Virus record (IMG/VR): IMGVR_UViG_2802429246_000002
Length of the DNA stretch: 47,096 bases
Source: a virus
Taxonomy: Duplodnaviria; Heunggongvirae; Uroviricota; Caudoviricetes
Reading direction: 5' to 3' (one strand)
Below are positions 6,692 through 36,559 of the stretch, one piece after another. The position numbers and the translations under genes are program-made. A model generated the notes under the pieces. It saw nothing but the letters and a program-made list of their open reading frames with translations, was not told where the DNA came from and did no database searches. How positions within the stretch are numbered: the first letter of the stretch is position 1; every line of letters starts with the position of its first letter.

Positions 6692-6708
6692 ATTACCTTT
6701 CAGGTAAT
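6692..6708. promoter_or_regulatory. 17-bp inverted repeat attacct-ttc-aggtaat (operator-like site A)
   Basis: Exact 7-bp arms, reverse complements of each other; member of a family of at least 13 sites. Confidence 0.6.
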
Positions 6709-7921: not shown

Positions 7922-8189
7922 TTTACATCGCACTCCTCTTGTGCCATAGTAATCGGGCACTGGCAAAATCCAGTGCCGGGATTGGCGTCCCGGATTACTA
8001 AAAGGCGCATTCACCGCGCAAGCGGTTTTTTTATGCGTATAGCACGGCCACATTCGTATTATGGTGGGCTGTGTGGGGGCACCGAAAGGTGCGCCGGGTC
8101 CTTTTAGCCGGTTACGCCAACCCTGCACAGTTCACCACCAACCGATTGGCGTCGGTAGTGGTGATTAACCAGACTAAAAGGTAACCACT

Positions 8190-8885
8190 ATGACAGCTAC
8201 AAAAAGCACGTCCATTTTTTCTTTCGAATCCCAAGCCGATATACGGGTAATCGTCATTAATGGTGAGCCATGGTTTATCGCTTCAGATGTTTGTCGGGCT
8301 ATAGGCATAGCAAACCATCGAGATGCTGTTCGAAAACTTGATGATGATGAGAAGGGCGTCGCTTCAACCGACACCCCTGGCGGTGAGCAAGAATCGATCA
8401 TTATCTCCGAGTCAGGCCTCTACACACTGATCCTCCGCTGCCGCGATGCGGTGACACCAGGCACTATCCCCTACCGCTTTCGTAAATGGGTTACAGGTGA
8501 GGTTCTTCCTCAGATCCGCCGCACCGGAAGTTACATTAAAAACTCGCTCCCGCAGGAAGAACGCATAAAGATGGTTGCCGACCAGGTTGCCAACGCCACG
8601 GCGTCAGCAGTAATGCAGGCGATGAAGATAGAGAACAAAACCTACAGCGCCCCGCTGAAGCCAGGATACCGCAGTCTGATTCACTCGCCGTCTGGTGTTC
8701 TCGGCCTGACGGAGAACTCACTGCTGATGAATCTGCTGAACCAGTTACAGGAAGACGGGCATGATGTATCGGGCGCGGCGGCGGAGCTGACCACCATGTT
8801 CTGCTACATCGTCGGTGTGAGTAAATGCCTGCGTGATATCCAGACGCATGCGGAGTACATCAACGACAAGGCTGGGTTCTTCTGA
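8190..8885 (+). CDS. Antirepressor (Bro-N/KilA-type N-terminal domain + Ant C-terminal domain)
   Basis: N-terminal IRVIVINGEPWFIASDVCRAIG...ISESGLYTLILRCRD resembles Bro-N; C-terminal domain homologous to the 6784..7041 ORF. Confidence 0.7.
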   Translation: MTATKSTSIFSFESQADIRVIVINGEPWFIASDVCRAIGIANHRDAVRKLDDDEKGVASTDTPGGEQESIIISESGLYTLILRCRDAVTPGTIPYRFRKWVTGEVLPQIRRTGSYIKNSLPQEERIKMVADQVANATASAVMQAMKIENKTYSAPLKPGYRSLIHSPSGVLGLTENSLLMNLLNQLQEDGHDVSGAAAELTTMFCYIVGVSKCLRDIQTHAEYINDKAGFF

Positions 8886-24363: not shown

Positions 24364-24660
24364 TCACTCCTGTTCACTGGCCTCTTTGGCCATCTTCAAA
24401 TACTGTTCAGGGCAATGCGCCATAACGCGCTGAAACAGTTCCAGCGCCAGATTGCGTTGCCCCTCATTAAATGCCATTGCCATAGCGTCCATCGGTGAGA
24501 TAGCGGAAAACACACGGCCTTTCTCCAGCACCGACCAGACAACGCGACGCCCCTGTTCACTGCTCATGACAAAGCGAATGTCATCAATTTCACGCTGCGC
24601 CATGTCACGTTGCTTACGGGCGTTTTCTTCTTTCAGTTGATCGTCTTCGTAATCTGTCAT
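24364..24660 (-). CDS. Hypothetical head morphogenesis protein
   Basis: 98 aa ORF overlapping portal stop and scaffold start. Confidence 0.4.
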   Translation of the reverse strand: MTDYEDDQLKEENARKQRDMAQREIDDIRFVMSSEQGRRVVWSVLEKGRVFSAISPMDAMAMAFNEGQRNLALELFQRVMAHCPEQYLKMAKEASEQE

Positions 24661-26336
24661 TGTGATTGCCCACCCTGACCACTAACTGCATTCGCCATAG
24701 CTGACAAAACACTCGGATCCGAAGTTTTAGCTTCGCTTAGCGTCTTGGCACCCTGTGCCGCCGCCATCCCCATCGCCATCATTTGTTGCTGCTGTTGCTG
24801 CTGTGCCCGTTGCTGGCGAGCCTGCTCAACCTGTTCCTGCGGAACAATGACGGTTGGAGACACTCCGGACATATCAGCGAATGCATCGATCGCCTGATCA
24901 ACGTTGAGTTTGTCGAGAGCTTCTGGTTTCGCTTGCGCAAGTTGACCAATGAAGTTGACCGTAGACGCCAGACTGGACAAGCCGATAGACTTCTGCGCCT
25001 GAGCCATGACGGAAATGTATTCGACCTTCAGGGGCATACCTTCCATCGCGTCAGGCGGTGGCGGCAGCATGTTTTTACGCACCATCATCGAGAAAGCGCG
25101 GTCAATGAGAGGATTAAGACATTCGTCGTTCAGACGCTCCAGAACCGGCCCCAACATCAGAAGTTTTTCTTCTTTCATTTCGATCACCGCTTCAACAGGC
25201 ATCGAGCGGGTATTGATGTTCTGCAACATCATGAACAGATCGACAAAGTAGGCGCTGTTAATGATTTGACGAGTGTCCTGAATGTCTGCCACCAAATCTG
25301 CTGTACTGGGGTTAACCAGATAAGCAGGCCTGAAGCCATCCTGACCAGTAATCTGATCGATATACGTGATGTCGCCAGGAAGAAGGGAGGCGCGCTGATT
25401 CTTGAGGGAAGTCGGAGCAACCATCGGCGGATTGGTGGCTTTATCAATCAACTGCGACTTGCGCTTCTGGAGAAGCTGCAATGCCTTAACAGGTCCAAGC
25501 GCCAGCATACCCGGGCATGATGATCCATAAACATCTTCGCCGTTAACTTCCCAGCGCGGAGCCATAATTGGAAACTCATCGAATCCGGACTCACGCAACA
25601 ACTTGTCGTTATCGCCACCAACCTCGTAATAAACCGATTTGAATGGCTTGTTCTTGCTATCCAGCTTCGATGTATCGCGGTCAATGTTCGGGTAAACCGA
25701 ATGCATCACTTCAATCCACTTCTCGTAGGTGCCGCTTTCCCACATGCTTTTTACGGATTCGCTGACGTTATTTAGCCCGAACTCCTGAACAAGCTGACGA
25801 ACAGTCATAGAGAACTTACGAAAACATGTGTCCACACTGCCACGAGGTGAGTTAGCCAGGTAGTAACTACCTATCGGGAATGGCATTGTGCGAATTATGT
25901 CCTCGTCATCCTCCAGCACCGCCATTGCACCAGTGCTGTATGTGCCGAGGCTTCCGTATAACTGCGGAAGAGACTGGTAGAGATTCGACTTATTGAACAT
26001 ATCGTTCATGCGGTTCTGCACCGCCTCAAGCCACAACTTAACAGGGCCATAATCCATCATTTCAGGATCTGGCGTAGCCAGGCGAAACCACGGACGCGCG
26101 GGACTTGTGATGCCTGACATCATGCCGCTGGCGAGAGTGCGCGCCGCCATAGTCCCGGTCGAATCAATAATGCGTGTATTGCGTCGATCGTTACGGTTGA
26201 CCTCAGAAGTCAGAAAGCGGGAACCACGCGGGTTGATGTAATCACTCAACTCGCGCCAGTGCGGCTCGAACGACTGACGCTCGCTTTCAAGTTGTGCGAA
26301 CTGTTTGTTCAATCGCTCTTTAGTTGTTTCCGCCAT
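24657..26336 (-). CDS. Portal protein
   Basis: 559 aa; position after terminase module; Gln-rich C-terminal tail. Confidence 0.75.
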   Translation of the reverse strand: MAETTKERLNKQFAQLESERQSFEPHWRELSDYINPRGSRFLTSEVNRNDRRNTRIIDSTGTMAARTLASGMMSGITSPARPWFRLATPDPEMMDYGPVKLWLEAVQNRMNDMFNKSNLYQSLPQLYGSLGTYSTGAMAVLEDDEDIIRTMPFPIGSYYLANSPRGSVDTCFRKFSMTVRQLVQEFGLNNVSESVKSMWESGTYEKWIEVMHSVYPNIDRDTSKLDSKNKPFKSVYYEVGGDNDKLLRESGFDEFPIMAPRWEVNGEDVYGSSCPGMLALGPVKALQLLQKRKSQLIDKATNPPMVAPTSLKNQRASLLPGDITYIDQITGQDGFRPAYLVNPSTADLVADIQDTRQIINSAYFVDLFMMLQNINTRSMPVEAVIEMKEEKLLMLGPVLERLNDECLNPLIDRAFSMMVRKNMLPPPPDAMEGMPLKVEYISVMAQAQKSIGLSSLASTVNFIGQLAQAKPEALDKLNVDQAIDAFADMSGVSPTVIVPQEQVEQARQQRAQQQQQQQMMAMGMAAAQGAKTLSEAKTSDPSVLSAMANAVSGQGGQSQ

Positions 26337-26350
26337 TTCAATGACTCCGG

Positions 26351-26557
26351 TTACTGACCAAGCAGCGTTTTACCGCTGGTATTAGCGGTTGATGTGTCGC
26401 CCTGAGAACCGGTAAGCAGCGTAGAACTACGACCAGCAGCAGCGCGACGGCGACGAGTTTCTTCGTCGCGGGCATCAACAACGGCGGCATCCTGCTCCTG
26501 TGGTGCGGCCTGAACTTCTGGTGTTGCAGGCACTGATGGTGAGCTACCCATGCACAT
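26351..26557 (-). CDS. Small hypothetical protein upstream of portal (low-complexity)
   Basis: 68 aa ORF ending 15 bp before portal start; Ala/Arg-rich; coding status uncertain. Confidence 0.25.
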   Translation of the reverse strand: MCMGSSPSVPATPEVQAAPQEQDAAVVDARDEETRRRRAAAGRSSTLLTGSQGDTSTANTSGKTLLGQ

Positions 26558-26646
26558 ATCAATGACTCCGTACGCAATTAAATTATTACCAATTTAACCA
26601 CATATGATTTATTTATCGTAGATAGTTGACATTTAACGCACGAATT

Positions 26647-26663
26647 ATTACCTTTCAGGTAAC
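26647..26663. promoter_or_regulatory. 17-bp inverted repeat attacct-ttc-aggtaac (site D)
   Basis: Same motif family; upstream of the GC-rich structured region and tRNA. Confidence 0.5.
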
Positions 26664-26984
26664 CAAAGAGTTCATTCCGGTTACTAACCTGACTGGCTTG
26701 TCGTTAAATTGAACAGGTGGAGTGAGCTTTTATTTTGAGCAGTACGGCGTATGGCACATGCGCCGATAGCGGTCTGGATACGTTTAAGGGGCACCCTCCC
26801 TTGCTCGGGCAAACGAACCAGGTAGCCGGAATGTGCAAGTCGAGCGGTTTTATTCCGCGCACGGGGATTCACCATCCCGGCGATTCGGTGTGACACCTCG
26901 GAAGAGACGAGGGTACAACGATGAGGGCATTTATGGAGCCGCGACAAAGTGTGGTGCCTTAACAGGCTAAGTGCTCTCAGCGTT

Positions 26985-27061
26985 GTGGCATTAGCTCAGC
27001 TGGACAGAGCAACCGCCTTCTAAGCGGTTGGTCGCAGGTTCGAATCCTGCATGCCACGCCA
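26985..27061 (+). tRNA. tRNA-Arg (anticodon UCU), phage-encoded
   Basis: Manual fold: acceptor GTGGCAT/ATGCCAC, D-stem GCTC/GAGC, anticodon stem ACCGC/GCGGT with loop CTTCTAA, T-stem GCAGG/CCTGC with loop TTCGAAT, discriminator G, encoded CCA; sequence differs from E. coli argU. Confidence 0.85.
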
Positions 27062-27104
27062 GAATCACGCCTAAGGACCGTGATGCCAGAAGTTCCATGG
27101 GCTT

Positions 27105-27146
27105 GGCGGTGATGGTTTCCCTTGAAGGACTATCACCGCCCTTTTT
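27105..27146 (+). terminator. Rho-independent terminator downstream of tRNA (stem ggcggtgat/atcaccgcc + CTTTTT)
   Basis: 9-bp stem followed by T-run on plus strand. Confidence 0.55.
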
Positions 27147-27224
27147 ACAGCAGGACGCCATTGCGATGACTTCATGCTGTAAACCAGTACAGCCACGGAA
27201 GGCATAACTCATTGCTTCCAGTTC

Positions 27225-27248
27225 GCCCGGTTCGCCGGGCATTTTTTT
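27225..27248 (+). terminator. Rho-independent terminator (gcccgg-ttcg-ccgggc + T7)
   Basis: Perfect 6-bp GC stem with tetraloop followed by TTTTTTT. Confidence 0.65.
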
Positions 27249-27263
27249 GCCTGGTGACTGAAC

Positions 27264-27280
27264 GTTACCTTGAAGGTAAG
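27264..27280. promoter_or_regulatory. 17-bp inverted repeat gttacct-tga-aggtaag (site E)
   Basis: Core TTACCT-N3-AGGTAA intact; 32 bp upstream of the ATG at 27312. Confidence 0.5.
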
Positions 27281-27311
27281 ATAACAAAAACATTTAACAT
27301 CTGGTTTAGAC

Positions 27312-27917
27312 ATGTTCGAGCAATTTAAAGAGATCGCATCATCGGCTATTAGCACAACGTCAGAGAGAGTCCGCAACCCAGCACTTGGGGCATTTGTGTT
27401 TTCGTGGTGTTCTTTTAACTGGAATCCACTATTATTTTTATTCTTCAGTAAGTCAGGAATTGAAGAAAAAATAAATTATATATCTTCCCATAGTGATGCG
27501 TACCACTCACTCTTATATCCAGCTTTATGTGCATTCGCGCTGTGTGTAATAGTTCCATGGTTTAACAATATAGTGGTGATGTTTCAAAAAATTCCACTAC
27601 AGAACATCGATAACTTCAAACACAACAAAAGCCTCAGGGATGTTAAAAACGCCATAGAATTGCGTAAGCTTGAGGCACAAAGGGACATTACATACGACAG
27701 AGTTAAGGTTGAGTTTGAGTCTGAGATTCAATTCTATAAAAATGATTTAATCAAGCACCAAGAGTCTTTGAATTCTTTTTTGCAGGAAAGAGATTCCCTT
27801 ATTGAAAAAATAATGGCGCTTGAAAAAGAACTTGCAGAAGAAAAAATAAAATCCAATACCAGAATTGCAAATAAGTTTAACTCAAGGAACAATCGCAACA
27901 CAGACAATGCTGCTTAA
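27312..27917 (+). CDS. Cargo membrane protein: two N-terminal TM helices + C-terminal coiled coil (unknown function)
   Basis: 201 aa; about 35% GC; opposite strand to flanking terminase and portal genes; preceded by operator-like site. Confidence 0.65.
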   Translation: MFEQFKEIASSAISTTSERVRNPALGAFVFSWCSFNWNPLLFLFFSKSGIEEKINYISSHSDAYHSLLYPALCAFALCVIVPWFNNIVVMFQKIPLQNIDNFKHNKSLRDVKNAIELRKLEAQRDITYDRVKVEFESEIQFYKNDLIKHQESLNSFLQERDSLIEKIMALEKELAEEKIKSNTRIANKFNSRNNRNTDNAA

Positions 27918-27921
27918 AACT

Positions 27922-29391
27922 TTATGAAAACGGATCGTACTCAGTAATAGCTTTCCCCTGCTGCTGCCGTGGGTCATTAGTTTTCTTGGCTACCGGGAAG
28001 GCGAACGTTAGCAGCAGCGCATCACCTTTACCCGGCGAACGCCCAAGTCGCTCTTTGATATCTTCCTTCGGTTCGATAACGATTTTACCGTCCACGCGAA
28101 CTTTGTACTCTGCCGTCGACAGGTCGTCCGCTGTTTCCTGGTCATCCAGCATCCCGCCCAGCCTCAGCCATGTCTTGCATGAGTTGAACATCTCCCCACG
28201 CTTGTTGAGCATCTGCGGGTCAGTAGACGCGCCACCGAACGGAACAAGTTGCCATGTACGACCCCAGCCGTCACCGATTGACTTCAGACCAGTTCCGTAA
28301 CCGAAGTCGATGAACACTGCGTCAGCCTGGTACTGGTCTTCAAAGTCAGCGATACGCTTCGCCATTATCAGATCGTCAGTGGTCTTGTTGCCAGTCCACA
28401 GCACCTTACTGTGCAGCCCCTGCCGCAGGTATATCACAGCGTCATCAACGCCGGAGTATGCAGGGTCAACGCCGATTATCACCGGAGCATGTGCCACCTG
28501 CGCAGCAGTTACCACCCGTTTCATTGCCTCGTCAGTAAGACCGGTAGGGATAAACTGCAATTCAGATGCATCAGGAAATATGCCGCGCACACGGATTTTA
28601 ACGAAGTCGCTGTCTTCCCCGTAGTCATCAACCCATTTCTGTAATTGCTGCTTGTTAGTACCTTCCACCGTCCGGCTGTCAATCTGTGCAGTTTTCCAGC
28701 GGTGTTTATATTTGCGGAAACATTCGCGGAAACGCCCGGTGTTACGTGTCGGGTTTCCGAACGCCACCCAGATAATCTCAGTGTCTTCGTCCGTAAGCGC
28801 ACCCTCAGCAACTTCCCACACCAGATCCGCAATGTTCGACGCTTCATCGAATACCACGATGATGCGTTTGCGCTCATTGTGTAATCCGGCGAATGCCTCA
28901 GTGTTGTGCTCAGACCAGGGGATTGCGTCAGCTCGCCACCGCTTGTCGTGCCCAGGGTCATTGCTGTACATCGCGGTAGCGGTACAGGTAAACCAATCTT
29001 TCGTGATAGCAAGGTTCGACCACTTGATAATTTCCGGCCAGGTCTTCGTTCGTAGCTGGTTGTCGGTGTTGGCGGTCACCACGACCTTACAATCCTCGCA
29101 AGTGGACATGCCCCAGTTGATCAGCATTGAGATGAATGCTGATTTACCAATACCGTGACCAGAAGCACGTGCCAGCATAAGCGGCTGATAGCGCGTCTCT
29201 GGATTCTGCAGATGATCACGTATCTCTCGGAACGCATCGGCCTGCCACTGACGTGGACCGGTGGCATGTGCCAGTTCAGTCCCCTCTTCCCCCCACGGGA
29301 ACGCATAGAGGGCATAGCCAAGTGGATCGTGAGTGAACCCTGCAATATCCTCGATTAACTGCTCTTCAGGAGATAACGCTGTATCTGTCAC
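27922..29391 (-). CDS. Terminase large subunit
   Basis: 489 aa; ATPase region with GHGIGKS and downstream acidic motif VVFDEAS, C-terminal nuclease-like region; adjacent small subunit. Confidence 0.85.
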   Translation of the reverse strand: MTDTALSPEEQLIEDIAGFTHDPLGYALYAFPWGEEGTELAHATGPRQWQADAFREIRDHLQNPETRYQPLMLARASGHGIGKSAFISMLINWGMSTCEDCKVVVTANTDNQLRTKTWPEIIKWSNLAITKDWFTCTATAMYSNDPGHDKRWRADAIPWSEHNTEAFAGLHNERKRIIVVFDEASNIADLVWEVAEGALTDEDTEIIWVAFGNPTRNTGRFRECFRKYKHRWKTAQIDSRTVEGTNKQQLQKWVDDYGEDSDFVKIRVRGIFPDASELQFIPTGLTDEAMKRVVTAAQVAHAPVIIGVDPAYSGVDDAVIYLRQGLHSKVLWTGNKTTDDLIMAKRIADFEDQYQADAVFIDFGYGTGLKSIGDGWGRTWQLVPFGGASTDPQMLNKRGEMFNSCKTWLRLGGMLDDQETADDLSTAEYKVRVDGKIVIEPKEDIKERLGRSPGKGDALLLTFAFPVAKKTNDPRQQQGKAITEYDPFS

Positions 29392-35974: not shown

Positions 35975-36559
35975 ATGAAAAGTATCCAGGACGTCCGCAG
36001 GCAAAATCTCAACGACTTGATCGACCGTGAATTCAATGGTGTTCAGACGCGGATGGCAGAAAAACTTGGAACTCAGGCAAATCTGGTAAACCGCTGGGCT
36101 CTTGGCAAGAAGGTTATCGGCGACCAGGTTGCGCGAAAAATTGAAGCTGCCGCCAATAAACCCCGTAACTGGCTTGATATCGATCGCTCGCTTTCTCAGG
36201 AAGGTTTTCAGCCTGTCGGCCCAAGCGACATTGGTCAGCTGGCGGCTCACAACCTGGAACGCTGGATGAGCGAAAGCCGCGACCTTTCAACACAGGGAAA
36301 ACTTCACCGCGCATCCGGCGTCGCCCAGGTAACAATCAGCCGCCTGTTAAACAATGAGGTCAGCGTTTCCATTTCCACCCTGGAGAATGTTGCATCCGCA
36401 TTCGGGCGTCACGGCTATGAATTACTGATTCACCCGCACGACCCTGCGACCATCAACTATGACCGCTCGCGCTACGCATTGTTACCCGAAACCGAGAAAG
36501 CAAAGATCGAAAGTTACATTGAATTTGTCATCAACCAGAACGAAAAAAATAAACAATAA
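35975..36559 (+). CDS. Prophage repressor (CI-like), two HTH-like regions, no obvious LexA/S24-type autocleavage domain
   Basis: 194 aa; N-terminal XRE-type HTH (VQTRMAEKLGTQANLVNRW) and second HTH-like segment (GVAQVTISRLLNNEVSVSISTLENVA); divergent to cro-like gene. Confidence 0.65.
   Translation: MKSIQDVRRQNLNDLIDREFNGVQTRMAEKLGTQANLVNRWALGKKVIGDQVARKIEAAANKPRNWLDIDRSLSQEGFQPVGPSDIGQLAAHNLERWMSESRDLSTQGKLHRASGVAQVTISRLLNNEVSVSISTLENVASAFGRHGYELLIHPHDPATINYDRSRYALLPETEKAKIESYIEFVINQNEKNKQ

Follow-up and report, generated by a model that had tools for sequence, protein, structure and literature searches.

A pseudoknotted RNA domain shared by temperate phages, found beside a prophage tRNA-Arg(UCU), is a candidate leader for transcriptional read-through

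Introduction

The described systems closest to the RNA reported here are the put sites of phage HK022 (putL and putR), in which RNA polymerase passes the terminators that follow with the help of a folded nascent RNA of two stem-loops (~70 nucleotides, nt) at the start of the early-left transcript, and the nutL/N system of phage lambda, located just downstream of OL/PL. Other conserved structured RNAs of phages and prophages, GOLLD and ROOL, often lie next to tRNA genes, and species 1 and 2 of phage T4 (rnaC and rnaD) are structured non-tRNA RNAs co-transcribed with a phage tRNA-Arg(UCU), the 3' part of rnaC being tRNA-like. In the eukaryotic and unrelated case of MALAT1, the tRNA-like structure directly 3' of the RNA (mascRNA) lets RNase P set the 3' end of the non-coding transcript. 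The element described here, called the A-domain, was found upstream of a tRNA-Arg(UCU) gene in IMG/VR record IMGVR_UViG_2802429246_000002, an epsilon15/phiV10-like (Uetakevirus) prophage inserted adjoining guaA. The whole stretch of 47,096 nt that was analysed is referred to as the window, and positions without a locus label are those of the window; loci used for comparison carry labels of the type L125.

By its location the A-domain resembles put. In lambdoid phages without N it occupies the start of the early-left transcript, upstream of terminators and promoterless early genes, its copies following cI and operator-like repeats; in the window it follows a promoter overlapped by an operator-like palindrome and precedes two terminators, T1 and T2. 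A folded nascent RNA of conserved structure is concerned in both cases. Nevertheless, the A-domain RNA measures ~180-240 nt, contains a pseudoknot and has no similarity to put in sequence or fold. When the immunity region of HK022 was compared with the cassette, only chance matches of 9-13 nt and no invariant motif were obtained, and homology with put was rejected. Furthermore, the early-right side showed no second copy of the A-domain, a tRNA or cloverleaf predicted to be cleaved off comes after the A-domain, and podoviruses and P1 carry it as well.

The map position of nutL is likewise shared, together with two short motifs: the 5-bp hairpin P7 has a loop beginning with GAAGA, like boxB of nutL, and the 3' strand of the long stem, UGCUCU(C/U), resembles boxA. 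This boxA-like sequence, however, is the paired 3' strand of a covarying helix and is replaced through compensatory changes, by GUCAUCU or UACCCUU, in some members. The structure and not the boxA sequence is therefore what is conserved, and boxA/NusB-E mimicry was rejected. Lambdoid phages of this type were reported to be without an N homologue in a 2025 study, which suggested a put-like RNA (PMC12315714), and their first open reading frame (ORF) past the cassette, of the yfdP type, is acidic and not N-like.

As in T4, the A-domain adjoins a phage tRNA on the same strand, in the window and in loci L020, L090, L125 and L127, and in P1 and P7 it lies 11 nt after a tRNA. It differs from the T4 RNAs in that no sequence similarity exists, in that the T4 RNAs come after the tRNA and the A-domain RNA before it, and in that the A-domain is restricted to temperate phages. 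With respect to GOLLD and ROOL, the A-domain RNA has no Rfam match to either, belongs to Enterobacteriaceae hosts, and is smaller and modular. As in MALAT1, a tRNA-like structure stands directly 3' of a non-coding RNA, and RNase P may form the 3' end here too.

A conserved pseudoknotted RNA lies upstream of the tRNA gene

The segment 26744..26984 is one copy of a conserved structured RNA. An earlier note on this DNA had pointed to a GC-rich, hairpin-containing region upstream of the tRNA and had proposed either a processed leader or an unannotated structured RNA. The G+C content of 26744..26984 is indeed 0.57, higher than that of the prophage (0.48) and of the sequence directly on either side (0.35-0.36), and folding of the upstream region compared with shuffles gave z = -2.59 on the plus strand and z = -1.12 on the minus strand. 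The structured-RNA proposal was right and understated the case, given that the segment belongs to a widespread family with covarying helices and a pseudoknot.

Nineteen diverged homologues of 26744..26984 were aligned (alignment A1), and RNAalifold returned 45 pairs, among which 15 had compensatory changes. Two poorly supported pairs were then replaced by a pseudoknot in which the P5 loop (CACC) pairs with a GGUG located 9 nt downstream, yielding a final model of 47 pairs in nine helices, the pseudoknot included (coordinates in Table 1). In this model 99.4% of the cells were paired (92.9% in shuffles), compensatory changes were found in 16 pairs (shuffles 6.3) and double changes in 58 cells (shuffles 14.4), and none of 500 shuffles matched either of the latter figures; since many A1 sequences are kin, these counts are not to be read as probabilities. 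The slid controls, together with the multiple independent lineages, are the stronger argument for the structure: with partners slid by 1-3 columns, 0-3 compensatory pairs remained in the 47-pair model, and 0-4 against 15-16 over both models. The pseudoknot pair changes from C:G to A:U in the three lambdoid-type rows, a change by which the only mismatches of the earlier model are repaired. G-U pairs are frequent on the plus strand and would be A-C mismatches on the opposite one, which identifies the plus strand, that of the tRNA, as the folding strand.

Between and around the helices, the segments UGGCACAUG, GGUAGCCGGAAUGUGCAAG, CACCA, GGUGUGAC and GGAAGAGAC are invariant. Copies were located with an nhmmer profile and not with a covariance model; the only match of this profile in the window was at the A-domain site (E = 1.5e-43). 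Regarding the two hairpins given as examples in the earlier note, gggat/atccc corresponds to the conserved helix P5. The other, cggaat/attccg (26827-26832 with 26852-26857), is present in the window copy and is not conserved; its 5' arm lies within the conserved P2 and the invariant junction and its 3' arm within a lineage-specific variable hairpin, so that it competes with P2.

The RNA occurs in three unrelated groups of temperate phages

A sensitive DNA search revealed that 26744..26984 is not restricted to Uetakeviruses and is present in three unrelated groups of temperate phages. Copies ~83% identical were found in lambdoid phages (mEp460, cdtI, 2H10, Ayreon, and Stx2c and Stx2a phages), the first ~170 nt also in P7 and P1, and copies 68-73% identical in podoviruses of Klebsiella, Enterobacter and Salmonella. 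An exact A-domain 18-mer was found in at least 120 IMG/VR contigs. Allowing one degenerate position, the 18-mer gave 32 matches among species-representative genomes, nine of which were chance and 23 of which were backed by flanking motifs or a profile match. The 23 genomes are nearly all Enterobacteriaceae (Kosakonia, Citrobacter, Kluyvera, Klebsiella, Enterobacter, Phytobacter, Pseudescherichia, Pseudocitrobacter, Superficieibacter, Buttiauxella, Escherichia whittamii and Candidatus Erwinia dacicola), one match being on a 1.7-kb contig of a metagenome-assembled genome labelled Bacillota. Additionally, of 5426 complete E. coli genomes, 1843 contain a 185-nt core (26741..26925), the copy in E. 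coli VR50 being 100% identical to it; the core was detected at 2479 places (1925 chromosomal and 554 plasmid), and among the matches listed every place was without an annotated feature. The A-domain was found only in temperate phages, in a single copy per locus and always as the 5'-most module.

Among lambdoid phages, at least 10 distinct lineages carry the A-domain on the same strand as a cI-like gene, starting ~110-160 nt past it and farther in some. The cI terminator and two TTGC-N7-GCAA repeats resembling OL lie ahead of it, which places the A-domain ~45 nt into the early-left transcript, that is, at the nutL/putL position. T1, a long hairpin and yfdP-yfdQ-yfdR follow in this order, on to xis and int; between the cassette and yfdP...xis-int no recognisable promoter was seen, and no N is annotated. 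In two Shiga-toxin converting phages of O157:H7, the Stx2a phage WGPS2 (L170, 4389..5166) and an Stx2c phage (L004), the cassette lies between CI and an early-left operon that ends with excisionase and integrase; no N gene is annotated in WGPS2 or in the Stx2c phage. ST64B (L169, 7239..8053, minus strand) has an 815-nt gap between cI (sb38) and yfdP (sb37), with a different 5' structured region (echoes of GUAGCC...GUGCAAG) followed by the same B module, cloverleaf, T1 and long hairpin, so the 5' domain seems to exist in several types.

In the P1/P7 types, the A-domain is found 11 nt after a tRNA(CAU) and ~100 nt upstream of ban. In Uetakeviruses of at least six genera, the U run of T2 abuts the ribosome-binding site (RBS) and start codon (AAGGUGA...AUG) of a variable ORF, as observed in Escherichia, Klebsiella, Salmonella, Citrobacter, Superficieibacter, Pseudocitrobacter and Erwinia relatives, an arrangement in which this ORF would be expressible only by read-through. 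E. coli K-12 has lost the element, its related CPS-53 prophage retaining yfdP to yfdT, and K-12 data therefore do not apply.

The A-domain is one module of a larger RNA cassette

The phage RNA cassette is modular and consists of the A-domain, a stem with a hypervariable insert (B module), a tRNA or cloverleaf-like domain (T module), hairpin H and terminator T1. The B stem has 13 pairs, six with compensatory changes. Over the loci, 31 distinct inserts of 31-95 nt were counted, wholly different between lineages, and 6 of the 31 have a canonical T-arm. The module ends in an invariant GUU (G242, T243 and T244 of A1) directly before G+1 of the tRNA, and the slot that follows without a gap is filled by tRNA-Arg(UCU) in the window, L020, L090, L125 and L127. 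Most other members of the family have in this slot a cloverleaf-like non-tRNA domain (GUGGUGA...CCACCACAA) of 81-200 nt, closed by GUGGUGA/(Y)CACCAC, whose D-arm-like first hairpin and last hairpin, the latter abutting the 3' strand, both covary. The stem of hairpin H is identical in nine diverged homologues, after tRNA and cloverleaf alike.

Ahead of the A-domain, the leader has the pattern AAGCGCRC...GTCGTTAAAT...GGAGYGCGCT (as RNA, AAGCGCRC...GUCGUUAAAU...GGAGYGCGCU) in common with the leaders of L125 (1560..1655) and L126 (1460..1550) and with the inserts of L130. Its closing stem looks degenerate in the window, which hints weakly that the leader may be a degenerate copy of the stem-plus-insert module.

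The two terminators named in the earlier note were recovered as hairpins each followed by a T run. The T1 flanks UUGGCGG...CCGCCCUUUUUAC are kept in the Uetakevirus and lambdoid copies while the stem interiors differ, and the T2 stem covaries (GCCCGG/CCGGGC versus GCCCAC/GUGGGC). The segment between them, X, is conserved among Uetakeviruses of several genera and contains a hairpin, UUUACAGCAG...CUGCUGUAAA, that re-uses the U run of T1; in the whole 3' tail (alignment A2) only four covarying pairs were counted. A separate RNA of ~80 nt, for which the earlier note had seen room here, found little backing. No promoter-like site was present in segment X in the consensus scan, its Rfam matches were below threshold (RyhB 18 bits, E = 1.5), and in relatives it leads straight to the RBS and ATG of a promoterless ORF. 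From this arrangement segment X looks less like an RNA gene of its own than like a leader transcribed by read-through, which may form an attenuator together with T2, and a small RNA may be made from it by processing. An attenuator pairing of hairpin H with T1 was also considered and rejected, their complementarity not being conserved in the lambdoid copies.

B and cloverleaf modules also occur without the A-domain, with matches in 130 phage records, and look like a second uncatalogued RNA family. In P1 they come directly after tRNA-Thr, in a stretch annotated as the lipoprotein gene 'plp' in the related phage RCS47, and in Klebsiella phage KP591P1 they form the leader of a tRNA-Ser/Arg/Met operon. 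Such A-domain-free modules in tRNA clusters were located at L165 1400..1630, L166 1395..1750 and L167 1432..1660 (Klebsiella KP591P1, Magnus; P1). They are present in Klebsiella Ackermannviridae, short matches were obtained in E. coli, Shigella, Erwinia, Edwardsiella, Cronobacter and Pseudomonas D3-like phages, and some of the tRNA clusters that carry them belong to virulent phages. In T4 (L168, 1409..1748, minus strand), the tRNA-Arg is directly followed by rnaD and rnaC, and a canonical T-arm with an acceptor-like strand makes up the 3' end of rnaC.

The A-domain RNA is new in the sense that it is outside Rfam 15, is not annotated as RNA in any record examined and was not found in the searchable literature. 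The plus strand of 26650..26984 had no match in Rfam 15 even at E <= 10, so that the scan proposed in the earlier note recovered the tRNA and nothing upstream of it. At E <= 0.1, the A, B and T modules of six related loci were equally unmatched, and the Rfam scans gave only tRNAs, C4, isrK and int-alpA elsewhere. The invariant sequences, as DNA, RNA or reverse complement, do not occur in the searchable full-text literature, nor was a topical paper on the element found in the searchable literature, outside which lie subscription journals (the P1 genome paper, for example). The Pas small RNAs are unrelated. Likeness to an integron attC site, considered for an AAC...GTT hairpin, was rejected on the distance of any integrase and the poor fit to the consensus; a CsrA sponge was rejected with only ~5 conserved GGA motifs per 500 nt; and a phi29-type packaging RNA, an idea that came from the terminase-portal location, was rejected since the lambdoid and P1 copies sit elsewhere.

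Candidate promoter, operator-like palindromes and tRNA-Arg(UCU)

The candidate promoter ahead of the unit, TTGAC(A/C)-17 nt-TACCTT, is also present in the Klebsiella (L125) and Salmonella SPN1S (L127) homologues, and a consensus scan gave no strong sigma-70 site at the RNA/tRNA unit. Its -10 region is overlapped by a palindrome of the form TTACC-N5-GGTAA, which occurs 12 times in the window (0.05 expected), at 6693, 7813, 7906, 8952, 26648, 27265, 30002, 33556, 33618, 35905, 36617 and 36679. The copies are often paired ~62 bp apart or placed ahead of ORFs, and some flank an HTH_3 repressor-like ORF (35975..36559). The palindrome is probably the dispersed operator of the prophage repressor, a pattern that recalls the scattered C1 operators of P1. 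Its position over the promoter and its 12 copies suggest that the RNA/tRNA unit is probably repressed in the lysogen, and expression in the lysogen, to which the earlier note had attached weight, is doubtful.

The tRNA-Arg(UCU) is itself already known and annotated. As the earlier note had stated, it folds canonically: ARAGORN accepted it, and the Rfam tRNA model (RF00005) matched 26985..27058 at full length with 71.7 bits against a gathering score of 29. The anticodon tct is at tRNA position 35 in a 7-nt loop and the 3' end, ...ATGCCACGCCA, has an encoded CCA. It is distinct from argU of K-12, as claimed: GTGGCAT stands for GCGCCCT in the acceptor stem and CCGCC for CGACC in the anticodon stem, the only further difference being in the variable loop. 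AGA usage bears on the idea that the tRNA supplies a rare codon. In the prophage ORFs AGA reaches 7.1 per 1000 codons, or 12% of Arg codons, against 0 in the three host genes of the window; the genes for capsid, portal and terminase are free of it, and it is concentrated in those for tail and injection and in early genes. Codon supply is therefore plausible but modest, and would mainly serve tail and early genes. Sequences ~90-95% identical to the tRNA were matched in 64 Synechococcus phage records, which shows that this tRNA type is found well outside enterobacterial phages.

A cis-acting leader is the proposed function

The function favoured for the A-domain is that of a cis-acting leader which would let RNA polymerase read through the terminators that follow, in the manner of HK022 put. 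This reading, based on the arrangement of the loci, is given a probability of about 40%. The unit would be transcribed from the TTGACA promoter, silent in the lysogen with its -10 under the palindromic operator and switched on at derepression. The A-domain would then act in cis on the polymerase making it, allowing passage through T1 and T2 into the promoterless genes behind, and would thus be a functional counterpart of the HK022 put RNA or of lambda nutL/N, unrelated to them in sequence and fold. Cleavage by RNase P is predicted between 26984 and 26985, at the invariant GUU|G junction, U at position -1 being the preferred context of this enzyme, and the tRNA-Arg would be a passenger in the cloverleaf slot, supplying AGA decoding. 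The cis role is favoured by the position of the A-domain as 5'-most module, in single copy, only in temperate phages and ahead of co-directional genes. Each of the three phage groups has such genes after it, and in two groups these genes are promoterless and lie behind strong terminators.

In its widest form, the proposal would make the A-domain a new class of RNA-only processive antiterminator, unrelated to put, in N-less lambdoid phages (those with Stx2a and Stx2c included), P1-like and epsilon15/phiV10-like phages, with the B and cloverleaf modules as a wider tRNA-mimicking family; so extended, it is offered tentatively. Early or moron operons would be driven through intrinsic terminators after derepression.

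Several observations weigh against a read-through function. Apart from the missing similarity to put in sequence and structure, a tRNA or tRNA-like domain stands between the A-domain and the terminators, and cleavage by RNase P would sever the tether that put-type RNAs need. T1 moves with the cassette between phage families, resembling the end of a stable-RNA gene, and P7 has no terminator between the A-domain and ban. In the window, the downstream ORF has an operator-like site of its own (27265..27279) and may not need read-through. Where virulent phages carry the stem-plus-insert and cloverleaf modules in their tRNA clusters, no ORFs lie downstream, which is a better fit to stable RNAs.

These last points lead to the main alternative, a processed, trans-acting stable RNA, which is possible, if doubtful. 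The gene would end at T1, and RNase P cleavage at GUU|G would free an A+B RNA of ~240-320 nt plus the tRNA or cloverleaf; early in the lytic cycle, the product would bind a conserved host component, or would counter tRNA-targeting defences as a decoy or mimic of tRNA. The exactly abutting junction with its invariant U at -1, the cloverleaf folds of the 3' modules, the canonical T-arm of some inserts and the conservation of T1 as a cassette part all fit this proposal, as do the B and T modules that P1 and phages of Klebsiella, E. coli and Pseudomonas, some of them virulent, have within their tRNA clusters, and the gene order of T4, where rnaC ends with T-arm and acceptor strand. Hypervariable inserts within a fixed scaffold would suit an arms-race interface. 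Nevertheless, a stable RNA would leave unexplained why the A-domain is always first in an operon whose promoterless genes lie behind a strong terminator; the P7-type copy has no 3' processing handle, the virulent phages that bear B and T modules lack the A-domain, and a comparison with the rest of the prophage gave no significant complementarity, antisense targets there being rejected as chance matches of at most 13 nt. Read-through in cis and a stable RNA in trans could both hold, for different modules. An aptamer of the riboswitch kind, sensing a ligand or a tRNA and deciding on the use of T1, T2 or the translation start, is improbable; early or moron gene expression would in that case follow a host metabolite or the tRNA status. 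The covarying helices and pseudoknot around invariant unpaired segments are aptamer-like, the element is always a 5' leader upstream of terminators or a start codon, and, by inspection only, UGGC of the invariant loop complements the GCCA 3' end of tRNA-Arg and AGA occurs within GAAGAGA, as in a T-box-like arrangement; matches as short as these may easily arise by chance. The A-domain and T1 showed no alternative pairing that is conserved, they lie 150-300 nt apart with unrelated modules in between, and the 3'-adjacent sequence is wholly different between contexts.

The remaining two explanations are far less probable. An ordinary pre-tRNA leader, or a decaying remnant without a function of its own, would agree with the place of the A-domain directly 5' of the tRNA in the window. 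The covariation and the tRNA-free contexts already contradict it, as they do the simple leader proposed in the earlier note: the domain is retained with compensatory changes over at least 12 genera and in about one third of the E. coli genomes, and it is found without a tRNA in lambdoid phages and upstream of ban in P1 and P7. The lowest probability of all is given to a protein gene on the minus strand, as annotated in phiV10, mEp460 and others, or a recombination or packaging site at the DNA level. Two minus-strand ORFs, 26684..26947 (87 aa) and 26991..27293 (100 aa), overlap the RNA domain and the tRNA, their equivalents are annotated as hypothetical proteins in phiV10, EC.W1-9 and mEp460, and the Uetakevirus copies lie between the terminase and portal genes. 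However, the minus-strand frame over the element is open in 7 of the 19 homologues and interrupted by 1-4 stops in the remaining 12, none of the frames stays open throughout the set of 19, and the indels (1, 2, 4, 5, 8 and 10 nt) are not multiples of three, so these 'hypothetical proteins' were ruled out as genes. The changes are compensatory within helices, G-U pairs mark the plus strand as the folding one, and the terminase-portal location is not common to the lambdoid or P1 copies.

Roughly every third complete E. coli genome contains the A-domain RNA, as do many P1-like plasmids and Stx2-converting phages; it has never been annotated as RNA in the records examined and is covered in some phage records by spurious coding sequences for hypothetical proteins. 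As the lambdoid copies follow the early-left promoter and precede all the genes as far as xis and int, the activity of the A-domain may decide excision and development after induction, also in toxin phages. A put-like mechanism has long been suspected in N-less lambdoid phages, and the A-domain is a concrete candidate for it. With its strong covariation, this pseudoknotted modular family is suited to structure probing and cryo-EM, and it offers a link to a 50-year-old puzzle, the non-tRNA stable RNAs in phage tRNA clusters. The tRNA-Arg appears as one interchangeable module of a larger RNA, which changes the reading of such 'phage tRNA' loci.

Genomic setting

Table 1. Positions of the features of the RNA cassette and of its neighbours in the window
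Feature	Position	Strand	Remarks
Candidate promoter, -35 hexamer TTGACA	26626..26631	+	weak -10 TACCTT 17 nt downstream; read from sequence
Candidate operator, palindrome TTACCTTTCAGGTAA	26648..26662	.	overlaps -10 region
5' leader	26665..26743	+	resembles degenerate stem-plus-insert module, carries GTCGTTAAAT; inspection only
A-domain, conserved core	26744..26920	+	A1, RNAalifold, pair counts
Helix P1	26745-53/26757-65	+	
Helix P2	26770-73/26825-28	+	
Helix P3	26774-76/26819-21	+	
Invariant segment GGUAGCCGGAAUGUGCAAG	26821-39	+	
Helix P4	26839-41/26879-81	+	
Helix P5	26864-67/26875-78	+	3 of 4 pairs with compensatory changes; loop in pseudoknot
Pseudoknot	26870-73/26887-90	+	
Helix P6	26891-92/26914-15	+	
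Helix P7, loop GAAGAGA	26896-900/26908-12	+	
B module	26918..26984	+	stem 26918-20/26981-83 and 26923-32/26969-78; hypervariable insert 26933..26968
tRNA-Arg(UCU), encoded CCA	26985..27061	+	ARAGORN tRNA-Arg(tct); Rfam RF00005
Hairpin H, invariant (AAUCACGCCUAAGGACCGUGAU)	27063..27084	+	
Intrinsic terminator T1 (GGCGGUG...CACCGCC and U run)	27105..27146	+	hairpin 27105..27140; terminator scan
Inter-terminator segment X	27147..27224	+	hairpin UUUACAGCAG...CUGCUGUAAA, motif CGCCAUUGCGAUGAC
Intrinsic terminator T2 (GCCCGG UUCG CCGGGC and U7)	27225..27248	+	hairpin 27225..27240; terminator scan
Portal	24657..26336	-	
68-aa ORF	26351..26557	-	
Moron ORF, 201 aa	27312..27917	+	cassette swapped in for that of phiV10; operator-like palindrome 27265..27279 in front
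TerL	27922..29391	-	

The unit forms part of a plus-strand island (26626..27917) flanked by the portal and the 68-aa ORF on one side and TerL on the other, all three encoded on the minus strand. Identity to phiV10, TL-2011b, ZX5 and O157 typing phages 9 and 10 is 98-99% over 26560..27300, a region that in these phages, too, is placed between the portal-side genes and the gene of the large terminase subunit and runs on the strand opposite to them. Homology to phiV10 stops at 27248, and from 27249 onward the ORF cassette is replaced in the window. The 201-aa moron ORF has a hydrophobic N-terminus and a lysine/glutamate-rich C-terminal half; its PHROG match was phrog_4780 (function not assigned in PHROG), no Pfam match was obtained and PADLOC gave nothing credible. 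Other ORFs fill this spot in relatives, for example a DUF2829 protein in Klebsiella.

At the end of the prophage, a 525-aa ORF (41911..43488) lies directly at the boundary and an integrase-sized ORF was found at 40468..41718, both of which fit the 3' end of guaA, the attachment site reported for phiV10, epsilon15 and ZX5 (PMC9782041). Additionally, isrK (7957..8032, 77.9 bits) and a C4 antisense RNA (8057..8142, 77.7 bits) were found in tandem upstream of an ORF at 8190..8885; together they form an immI-type antirepressor control module, and the isrK and C4 pair is also present in mEp460 (L002, 206..394).

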